Part shown: positions 795 to 2,641 of the stretch, piece after piece | Layout: each line of letters starts with the position of its first letter | How positions within the stretch are numbered: position 1 is the stretch's first letter | Position numbers and translations under genes: made by a program | Notes under the pieces: generated by a model | Databases searched by the model: none | Told to the model about the DNA's origin: nothing | Seen by the model: the letters and a program-made list of their open reading frames with translations, nothing else | DNA from: Escherichia coli | Lineage (GTDB): Bacteria; Pseudomonadota; Gammaproteobacteria; Enterobacterales; Enterobacteriaceae | DNA length: 64,000 bases | NCBI RefSeq assembly: GCF_003334815.1 | Contig: NZ_QOWO01000005.1 | Direction: 5' to 3' (one strand)

Positions 795-1952
795 TTGAAA
801 CGTAGTCTGCTTTTTTCTGCCGTGCTGTGTGCGGCGTCATTGACCTCCGTCCATGCGGCGCAGCCGATCACTGAACCGGAGTTTGCCTCTGATATTGTCG
901 ATCGTTATGCCGATCATATTTTTTACGGCAGCGGTGCCACGGGGATGGCTCTGGTTGTTATCGACGGTAACCAGCGCGTCTTTCGCAGTTATGGCGAAAC
1001 GCGACCTGGTAATAACGTTCGCCCGCAGCTGGATTCGGTCGTGCGTATTGCTTCCCTCACCAAGCTAATGACCAGTGAGATGCTGGTGAAATTGCTCGAC
1101 CAGGGGACCGTGAAGTTAAACGATCCGCTAAGTAAATATGCTCCGCCAGGCGCACGCGTGCCAACCTACAATGGGACGCCCATTACGCTGGTCAATCTGG
1201 CAACCCATACCAGCGCCCTGCCCCGTGAACAGCCCGGTGGCGCGGCACATCGTCCGGTGTTTGTCTGGCCAACGCGCGAGCAACGCTGGAAATACCTTTC
1301 TACGGCGAAGCTGAAAGCCGCGCCAGGCAGTCAGGCGGCGTACTCTAACCTTGCGTTCGACCTGCTGGCAGATGCACTGGCGAATGCGTCCGGCAAGCCT
1401 TATACCCAGTTGTTTGAAGAGCAGATTACCCGTCCATTGGGGATGAAAGACACCACCTACACCCCCTCACCGGATCAGTGCCGCCGTTTAATGGTTGCTG
1501 AGCGCGGTGCCAGTCCGTGCAATAACACGCTGGCGGCAATTGGCAGCGGCGGCGTCTATTCCACGCCTGGCGATATGATGCGCTGGATGCAGCAGTATTT
1601 GTCATCTGATTTTTATCAGCGCAGTAACCAGGCAGATCGCATGCAGACGTTGATTTATCAGCGCGCGCAGTTTACGAAAGTGATTGGCATGGATGTCCCC
1701 GGCAAAGCGGATGCGCTTGGTTTAGGTTGGGTATATATGGCCCCGAAAGAGGGTCGTCCGGGGATTATTCAGAAGACAGGCGGTGGTGGCGGTTTCATTA
1801 CCTATATGGCGATGATCCCGCAGAAGAATATTGGCGCGTTTGTGGTGGTCACTCGTTCGCCGTTGACGCGCTTTAAAAATATGAGCGATGGCATCAATGA
1901 CCTGGTGACCGAGCTAAGCGGGAATAAACCGTTGGTTATCCCCGCGTCCTGA
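795..1952 (+). CDS. ampH: Penicillin-binding protein AmpH (class C beta-lactamase-like DD-peptidase)
   Basis: 385 aa ORF with signal peptide and SxxK active-site motif (ASLTK); length matches AmpH. Confidence 0.93.
   Translation: MKRSLLFSAVLCAASLTSVHAAQPITEPEFASDIVDRYADHIFYGSGATGMALVVIDGNQRVFRSYGETRPGNNVRPQLDSVVRIASLTKLMTSEMLVKLLDQGTVKLNDPLSKYAPPGARVPTYNGTPITLVNLATHTSALPREQPGGAAHRPVFVWPTREQRWKYLSTAKLKAAPGSQAAYSNLAFDLLADALANASGKPYTQLFEEQITRPLGMKDTTYTPSPDQCRRLMVAERGASPCNNTLAAIGSGGVYSTPGDMMRWMQQYLSSDFYQRSNQADRMQTLIYQRAQFTKVIGMDVPGKADALGLGWVYMAPKEGRPGIIQKTGGGGGFITYMAMIPQKNIGAFVVVTRSPLTRFKNMSDGINDLVTELSGNKPLVIPAS

Positions 1953-2641
<689 letters not shown>

Follow-up and report, generated by a model that had tools for sequence, protein, structure and literature searches.

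The Escherichia coli ampH message ends on a conserved hairpin inside the coding sequence of its convergent neighbor iprA

The ampH and yaiV genes of Escherichia coli (yaiV is currently named iprA) converge with no base between their stop codons, and published mapping shows that the ampH message ends on a hairpin, called hairpin B below, that lies inside iprA. This is very probably an ordinary tight convergent pair in which the ampH 3′-end signal has moved into the iprA coding sequence and is not absent. The window analyzed here is the whole 64,000 nucleotide stretch of E. coli DNA that contains the junction (RefSeq assembly GCF_003334815.1, contig NZ_QOWO01000005.1). Positions are those of the window unless K-12 is specified, and a window position x corresponds to 397082 minus the K-12 MG1655 position. 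The relevant features are collected in Table 1.

Table 1. Features at and around the ampH/iprA junction, in window positions
Feature	Position (bp)	Strand	Description and basis
ampH transcription start sites	719, 763, 764	+	K-12 396363, 396319, 396318; SMRT-Cappable-seq Supplementary Data 2 (PMC6131387)
ampH coding sequence	795..1952	+	385 amino acids; PF00144 beta-lactamase-family DD-carboxypeptidase/endopeptidase; open reading frame list, RefSeq, Pfam marks on orthologues
C-rich, G-poor tract	1653..1853	−	+100 to +300 past the iprA stop; predicted candidate Rho utilization region
Hairpin A	1918..1945	−	12 bp stem, about −15 kcal/mol, in the last 11 ampH codons; folding
Secondary ampH-sense 3′-end	1947..1955	+	K-12 395127–395135, peak 395130; PMC10687069 Supplementary Data 3
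iprA (yaiV) coding sequence	1953..2576	−	207 amino acids; PF15977 HTH_46 regulator; open reading frame list, RefSeq
Hairpin B	1962..1998	+	16 bp stem, one bulge, 4 nt loop, −20.9 kcal/mol; folding
U-rich tract TTTATTCATTTC	1995..2006	+	3′ foot of hairpin B; iprA codons E-M-N-K
Primary ampH 3′-end	1997..2006	+	K-12 minus strand 395076–395085; PMC10687069
Palindrome AATGCCCGTCAA-nnnn-TTGACGGGCATT	2597..2624		Perfect 12 bp; between an autotransporter gene and iprA

The sequence at bp 1941–1960 (cccgcgtccTGATTAatactc) spans both stop codons; the ampH TGA occupies bp 1950–1952 and the iprA TAA, which appears as TTA on the plus strand, occupies bp 1953–1955. An earlier sequence-only reading had pointed out this stop-to-stop abutment and its complete lack of intergenic bases, and both are borne out by the sequence, the open reading frames and the RefSeq annotation. 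The RefSeq gap is likewise 0 bp in three E. coli strains and in K-12 MG1655 (iprA 394506..395129, ampH 395130..396287), and 5420 of 5426 complete E. coli genomes contain the region. The RefSeq iprA start is the ATG at bp 2576, which has an AAGGA ribosome-binding site; a mechanically delimited open reading frame of 222 amino acids begins upstream of it at the ATG at bp 2621, and the stop is unaffected by the choice of start. Since no base separates the two stops, each mRNA must enter the opposite gene.

SMRT-Cappable-seq describes ampH as a monocistronic unit (PMC6131387), and the end of its message is given by the TRS study of K-12, which combined RNAtag-seq and term-seq 3′-ends from cells grown in LB and minimal medium with a re-analysis of earlier data (PMC10687069). 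There the ampH terminus is classed as “Primary”, with a 3′UTR of 52 nt, support in at least three data sets and a peak at K-12 395078/395079 (window 2004/2003). The upstream sequence listed for it in the TRS table is window 1953–2004 and gives the same fold and the same free energy as hairpin B. A monocistronic ampH unit with its primary end on hairpin B means that the ampH message ends inside iprA. An ampH 3′-end near bp 2005 (K-12 ∼395076) had been predicted from the sequence before the published table was found. The end statistic in the TRS study is moderate for ampH (0.57–0.81), which suggests that 3′-end formation is incomplete. A secondary, weaker ampH-sense end coincides with the stop codon, immediately past hairpin A as read on the plus strand; it is probably a decay or processing intermediate. 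Expression of ampH is very low, and the available data show weak expression of iprA as well. The curated Term-seq ends of Adams et al. (2021) include none near the junction, the TERMITe tables have no entry for either ampH or iprA, and the SMRT-Cappable-seq termination-site table has none for the junction, that data set providing start sites only.

These data bear on two further statements of the sequence-only reading. The abutment had been thought to leave no room for terminators, and this is not correct, as a terminator-like hairpin and a U-rich tract are embedded in the last iprA codons and the mapped ampH end is found there. Overlapping 3′UTRs had also been proposed. That part stands for ampH, whose 3′UTR (bp 1953–2004) is antisense to iprA codons 191–207, and has no counterpart for iprA, which has no mapped end. 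The published 3′-end maps were checked for transcripts that end without convergent overlap; the ampH end they contain is inside iprA, and with the mapped ampH 3′UTR within the iprA coding sequence the two transcripts overlap physically. Because this 3′UTR lies wholly inside iprA, any complete iprA mRNA would be complementary to the ampH mRNA over at least 52 nt.

On the ampH mRNA hairpin B lies 10–46 nt past the TGA, within iprA codons 193–204 (KGKLVAINRLPS), and so is a stable stem-loop shortly 3′ of the stop as expected for an intrinsic terminator; with its U-rich tail it extends over 10–54 nt past the stop, or iprA codons 190–204. The published 3′-end falls within the U tract, also as at an intrinsic terminator. 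The 120 nt fold is more stable than those of its shuffles (z = −2.9 to −3.3). A consensus promoter/terminator scan caught just the inner 5 bp stem at bp 1973–1986, with a hit count not above that of shuffled sequence, and the full hairpin appeared only on folding. A looser, window-wide scan for a hairpin followed by U-rich sequence returned 50 matches in 128 kb, six of them at −20 kcal/mol or better, so the pattern alone is not decisive. Rfam at permissive thresholds returned no match in bp 1–6500. We envisage that RNA polymerase transcribing ampH would pass the TGA and enter the antisense strand of iprA, and that within 46 nt it would have transcribed the 16 bp hairpin, followed by the U-rich tract; the message would end at the hairpin and U tract with the 52 nt 3′UTR of the published mapping, most likely by intrinsic, Rho-independent termination.

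The comparative data argue that hairpin B is under selection as an RNA structure on the ampH strand. They come from 34 enterobacterial loci, 22 from species-representative genomes and 12 found through IprA homologues; the alignment of hairpin B across them is ungapped and contains 30 distinct sequences. All 34 ampH-adjacent orthologues retain the hairpin (−14 to −25 kcal/mol), and in the ampH sense none of its core pairs is ever broken. Changes on both sides are seen in five pairs and are synonymous in iprA: Lys AAA→AAG accompanies Arg CGT→CGC, and Lys AAA→AAG (or Arg CGG) accompanies Pro CCT→CCC. Such double changes are present in several lineages (loci L023 and L024, Trabulsiella, Yokenella, Pseudenterobacter and Enterobacter). 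None of 500 shuffles matched the observed values for paired fraction, doubly changed cells or covariation, in a control that is lenient and among sequences that are related. Synonymous-codon identity among 22 representative taxa is 0.70–0.73 in iprA codons 188–206 versus 0.47 gene-wide, and this segment accounts for the top 8 of 193 windows along the gene, the strongest such conservation in iprA. Compensatory changes and synonymous conservation are thus both found at hairpin B, as expected of a structured RNA under selection, with the reservation that the sequences are related and the shuffles lenient. With hairpin B and its U tract written in iprA codons 190–204, the comparison shows the synonymous sites there to be constrained and to evolve in a compensatory manner.

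The same alignment speaks to whether the palindrome serves iprA itself, as an mRNA structure, a codon choice or a DNA site, and lies behind ampH by coincidence. The arms do encode the conserved residues KGK and RLP, and the hairpin can also be folded on the iprA mRNA (−8 to −22 kcal/mol); there, however, it would sit in a translated region, 5 nt before the stop, and it is the ampH strand that carries the mapped RNA end. Every one-sided substitution leaves a G-U pair in the ampH sense and a C-A mismatch in the iprA sense, so that pairing is kept in the former only, and among the 30 distinct sequences paired cells make up 90.2% in the ampH sense versus 81.5% in the iprA sense. An iprA-like paralogue away from ampH (C. 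farmeri, locus L032), a single case, has lost the hairpin (−9.1 kcal/mol) while similar residues are kept. That the palindrome serves iprA alone is very unlikely on this evidence. Given the relatedness of the sequences and the single paralogue, we regard the comparative results on hairpin B as supportive rather than as formal proof.

The U tract is less uniform than the hairpin. The tail UUUAUUCAUUU 3′ of hairpin B is interrupted, with U at 6 of the 10 positions that follow alignment column 44, and Enterobacter, Leclercia, Yokenella and Pseudenterobacter no longer have the tract although they retain hairpin B; hairpin B may for these reasons be a pause site or a 3′-end protector in place of a classical terminator. 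As a protector it would mark the place to which 3′-to-5′ exonucleases trim an ampH RNA that Rho had stopped further on. This is possible, and on balance we think it somewhat unlikely. It would accommodate the genera that keep the hairpin without the U tract, the second end just past hairpin A at the stop codon, which resembles exonuclease stalling, and the bicyclomycin-sensitive region on the ampH strand, where downstream coverage equals upstream coverage without the drug. A pure exonuclease block, on the other hand, needs no U tract, and nearly all Escherichia, Citrobacter and Salmonella loci, as well as a lineage of 51% identity, carry the tract without any synonymous change; in the alignment it is unchanged in Escherichia, Citrobacter, most Salmonella and loci L023 and L024. 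In addition, the mapped end falls 5–8 nt past the hairpin B stem, as at intrinsic terminators, and on the ampH strand the C>G bias just past hairpin B is weak until ∼+340. An intrinsic terminator-like signal inside iprA is the reading that we retain for the ampH end.

Some signal from the ampH strand is evidently present beyond hairpin B. Adams et al. report a weak bicyclomycin-sensitive region for this strand, with its center 186 nt upstream of the ampH stop (score 2.48, p = 5.5e-5) and with 56 reads upstream and 57 downstream in the absence of the drug and 98 and 247, respectively, in its presence, all at low coverage. Downstream reads as numerous as upstream reads without the drug indicate that read-through or independent antisense transcripts cross iprA. 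The downstream excess induced by the drug suggests antisense starts in the AT-rich iprA gene as much as read-through. We did not accept the region as a clear-cut Rho signal, since the drug-induced signal is greater downstream than upstream and may reflect antisense promoters within the AT-rich gene. The region would fit a second, Rho-dependent stop behind hairpin B and is ambiguous for this site. Transcripts that escape hairpin B would probably be stopped by Rho in antisense iprA, and possibly by the palindrome at bp 2597–2624. On the plus strand this palindrome is followed by TATTTAGATT, and it could be a backstop for ampH-sense read-through; on the minus strand it is followed after 7 nt by a strong mapped 3′-end (K-12 394492, window 2590).

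Transcripts of iprA appear to meet no comparable signal. They would cross hairpin A, a weak hairpin in the last ampH codons, and then enter a C-rich, G-poor stretch. On the iprA-sense transcript hairpin A lies 8–35 nt past the stop, and its tail (UUAGCUCGG) has no U tract. It pairs better on the minus strand than on the plus strand (87.2% versus 74.2%), its covariation is not beyond that of shuffles (49 of 500), and the last 15 ampH codons show no synonymous constraint (0.49 versus 0.52, rank 240 of 371). Hairpin A is absent in C. amalonaticus, C. sedlakii, C. rodentium and Salmonella. With neither covariation beyond shuffles nor synonymous constraint, hairpin A was rejected as a conserved iprA terminator on the grounds that it is unproven. 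The stretch that follows has 28–41% C and 16–24% G, with C/G ratios up to 2.5, a value reached or exceeded by 0.5% of 80 nt segments in the whole window; C-rich, G-poor RNA past the stop, as expected of Rho terminators, is thus present downstream of iprA. The TRS tables contain no end labeled iprA or antisense-ampH and none within 60 nt of the iprA stop (PMC10687069), and Supplementary file 2 of Adams et al. has no Rho region on the iprA strand from K-12 378012 to 400341, a negative of little weight because iprA may be expressed too weakly to be scored. Most likely the iprA message would end heterogeneously and in a Rho-dependent manner inside antisense ampH.

The two palindromes flank the junction, and each is favored on the strand where it is downstream of a stop. 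Hairpins A and B could accordingly be pictured as a bidirectional terminator of the collision type described by Wang et al. and reportedly by Ju et al. (2019), in which both hairpins pause polymerases and head-on and trailing collisions release them. This model performs best at highly expressed gene pairs, whereas ampH and iprA are weakly expressed. The TRS tables have mapped ends on the ampH strand only, and not on both strands as at a bidirectional terminator; hairpin B possesses its own U-rich tail; and hairpin A has, as noted above, neither covariation nor synonymous constraint. A collision-type terminator is distinctly improbable here.

How unusual the abutment is was judged from four annotated 50 kb stretches of one E. 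coli genome (200 kb), the window's counterpart included. They hold 28 convergent pairs, most with gaps of 37–137 bp. Five of the 27 pairs other than ampH/iprA have gaps of no more than 3 bp or overlap (mtgA/yrbL, −4; yfgJ/xseA, −4; ves/cho, −41; ydjO/tcyP, +3; selO/hemP, +3). With 704 convergent pairs in the whole of E. coli according to a preprint, about a hundred such junctions are expected, and the ampH/iprA abutment in itself is ordinary and not beyond chance.

This frequency also weakens the possibility that there is no terminator at all and that the two genes read far into each other, so that convergent interference, by collision or by degradation of the duplex, sets their expression. 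In agreement with it are the zero spacer, the lack of a mapped iprA 3′-end, the ampH-strand signal that crosses iprA and the example of mscL-arfA, which shows that such complementarity can regulate. Yet roughly one in five E. coli convergent pairs is equally tight, both of these genes are weakly expressed, so that collisions would be rare, and ampH has a discrete primary 3′-end, 52 nt past its stop, on a conserved hairpin. We regard interference in place of termination as unlikely, and favor an ampH terminator embedded in iprA.

The persistence of the tight gap is another matter, and comparison of the sequences indicates that it does exceed chance across genera. In 30 of the 34 loci, from about ten genera, the ampH/iprA gap is between −4 and +13 bp. 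It is 0 bp in Escherichia (E. fergusonii and E. albertii included), C. rodentium, C. sedlakii, some C. amalonaticus and Raoultella, 1 bp in the C. freundii group, 2–5 bp in Trabulsiella, Pseudenterobacter and the lineage of 51% identity, 13 bp in Yokenella, and −4 bp in Enterobacter and Leclercia. Salmonella departs from this pattern with a gap of 42–44 bp; its spacer has a hairpin of its own, followed by AUUUUUG, on the ampH strand. In one C. amalonaticus strain a 157 bp GC-rich insertion lies 18 nt inside the ampH end. A tight gap in most of the genera sampled shows the arrangement to be ancestral and long-lived. A junction created by horizontal transfer was considered as the cause of the abutment, in view of the AT-richness of iprA, and was rejected because the arrangement is common to about ten genera. 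The presence of the ampH signal inside iprA codons explains why the two genes cannot easily drift apart.

Much of this was already known: annotations everywhere show the junction, and a published table (PMC10687069) gives the ampH 3′-end and its fold. What is new is only the evidence, drawn from sequence comparison, that the ampH terminator apparently constrains synonymous sites of iprA. The pair is a clean worked example of how convergent genes with no base between them need not lack a terminator; the 3′-end signal of one gene can sit in the synonymous sites of its neighbor and limit the neighbor's codon choice. For annotation, terminator scans limited to intergenic DNA miss such embedded sites, and deletion or recoding of the iprA 3′-end would also remove the 3′-end signal of ampH. 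The significance beyond this locus is small.

It is quite doubtful that the lasting stop-to-stop packing and the constraint on hairpin B reflect mutual regulation of the ampH 3′UTR and the end of the iprA coding sequence, whether by an RNA duplex, RNase III or polymerase collision. Such regulation would couple a peptidoglycan-remodeling enzyme (the ampH product) to a regulator of oxidative-stress resistance (the iprA product), much as arfA antisense RNA acts on mscL. Published work that mentions iprA or yaiV does not address ampH; induction of yaiV by cysteine has been reported. In the mscL-arfA pair, the nearest specific precedent, positions +1 to +64 of the mscL 3′UTR are complementary to the end of the arfA coding sequence, and arfA lowers the level of mscL RNA; this tail-to-tail arrangement is enriched in Enterobacteriaceae (PMC10070815). 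The ampH 3′UTR (+1 to +52) is similarly complementary to the last 17 iprA codons, but the mscL-arfA pair has a measured regulatory effect, whereas ampH and iprA, which have no spacer, would resemble it in the overlap.

Excludons and other long overlapping 3′UTRs involve convergent genes without a terminator between them, whose transcripts overlap (PMC7154746). The ampH and iprA transcripts do overlap and no terminator lies between the genes; excludons, however, have long antisense overlaps and reciprocal repression of functionally opposed genes, whereas the overlap on the ampH side is only 52 nt because the terminator-like element lies inside iprA.

Overlapping bidirectional terminators between convergent genes were reportedly seen by SEnd-seq in the 2019 work of Ju, Li and Liu. 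According to a preprint, hairpins where convergent units meet set the 3′-ends (Wang et al., bioRxiv 10.1101/2022.10.23.513370). The ampH/iprA pair is similar in having hairpin elements at its meeting point, and is different in that the bidirectional terminators are described as intergenic, active on both strands and favored at highly expressed pairs, whereas here two hairpins lie in coding sequence, one end is mapped and expression is low.

Further parallels are two of the tight pairs listed above. The yfgJ message ends 73 nt inside xseA and that of yrbL ends 102 nt inside mtgA (PMC10687069). Like ampH, each has a hairpin and its mapped primary 3′-end tens of nucleotides past its stop, in the opposing gene, with a spacing that is zero or negative. 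With the yfgJ and yrbL ends also inside neighboring genes, embedded ends look like the rule for tight convergent pairs; among these three, ampH-iprA is the pair for which there is evidence of compensatory change and synonymous constraint.

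The palindrome upstream of iprA (also known as yaiV; see the table) could be the terminator of the autotransporter gene or an attenuator within the iprA leader. The published K-12 data place a very strong iprA-strand 3′ end (p = 2.6e-208; labeled "5′ UTR iprA") at K-12 position 394492, or window 2590 (PMC10687069). This end lies 7 nt 3′ of the palindrome hairpin and 14 nt 5′ of the iprA ATG, and a U tract is absent there despite the strength of the end. Sequence comparison shows that compensatory changes preserve the palindrome in C. rodentium and Yokenella, and in Enterobacter and Leclercia a canonical GC hairpin followed by a T run occupies its place. 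In RefSeq, iprA is 207 aa long and starts at the ATG at 2576, preceded at a distance of 7 nt by an AAGGA site; the mechanically called ORF begins at the ATG at 2621 (222 aa), and its 15-codon extension (window 2577–2621) would cross the palindrome. One paper reports that cysteine induces yaiV and places a predicted CyuR site at −75 of the gene (window 2653–2631).

Features of the iprA region and of related loci (L-numbered loci have local coordinates)
Feature	Sequence	Coordinates	Remarks
Perfect 12-bp palindrome	window	2597–2624 (region 2585–2653)	between autotransporter stop (2664) and iprA start (2576)
Intact autotransporter gene, 968 aa	window	2664–5570	named ehaB in some strains' annotation
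Salmonella iprA-ampH spacer	L020	3625–3668	
Salmonella iprA-ampH spacer	L029	2625–2666	
Salmonella iprA-ampH spacer	L030	2625–2668	
IS1-split match (H1)	NZ_AP022105.1	3635471–3637448	IS1 somewhere within ampH 3′ end, iprA or adjoining spacer

A second ampH-sense 3′ end is reported at the ampH stop codon (window 1947–1955; K-12 peak 395130; PMC10687069). It lies directly 3′ of the + strand form of hairpin A, the hairpin formed by the last ampH codons, and may be a decay intermediate. Elsewhere in the window, yahN (+) and yahM (−) form another tight convergent pair with a 16-bp gap (48314–48331), and the gaps of the other six convergent pairs in the first 50 kb are 97–174 bp.

The ampH-iprA junction varies among relatives. 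In Salmonella (S. enterica diarizonae and salamae, and S. bongori), the two genes are separated by a 42–44 bp spacer. On the ampH strand of the two S. enterica loci, this spacer carries a hairpin with AUUUUUG or AUUUUUA as its tail, and that of S. bongori has a weak hairpin with the tail CUACUUUUUA. Hairpin B, which lies within iprA behind the ampH stop, is retained in the Salmonella loci with one G-U pair, and thus Salmonella ampH has two tandem hairpins, that of the spacer and hairpin B. In C. amalonaticus S646, a 157-bp GC-rich, repeat-like insertion (L010, about 3643–3800) lies 18 nt inside the ampH 3′ end, so that the C-terminus and stop of ampH are new; the former ampH end still adjoins iprA. 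In strain WP5-S17-ESBL-10, an IS1 element splits the match to window 1500–2700 (H1 in the table) into two pieces.

C. farmeri carries a second autotransporter and iprA-like pair (L032, 2001–2624; 60% identity to IprA), in which the next gene encodes a LacI-type regulator and is not ampH. This paralog served as the single control locus (n = 1) in which the iprA-like gene is not adjacent to ampH.

Two database records are anomalous. A contig labeled Chryseobacterium sp. 18061 (L024) carries an enterobacterial sbmA-ampH-iprA locus that nearly matches the one in "Citrobacter sp. 18056", a record of the same study; contamination or mislabeling is the probable cause. The predicted 259-aa protein P0073, from an ENA contig, is 99% identical to IprA across 61% of the query; despite this match it is marked PF00144 (beta-lactamase family), the family of AmpH, which points to a gene-calling, rearrangement or assembly artifact spanning the ampH-iprA junction.

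Antisense to the autotransporter gene, a 508-aa ORF occupies window 2703–4229 (+ strand); it is probably an artifact of repetitive, codon-biased sequence. The K-12 ortholog of the autotransporter gene is yaiT, an IS3-split pseudogene; since the gene is intact here, the window DNA is not from K-12.
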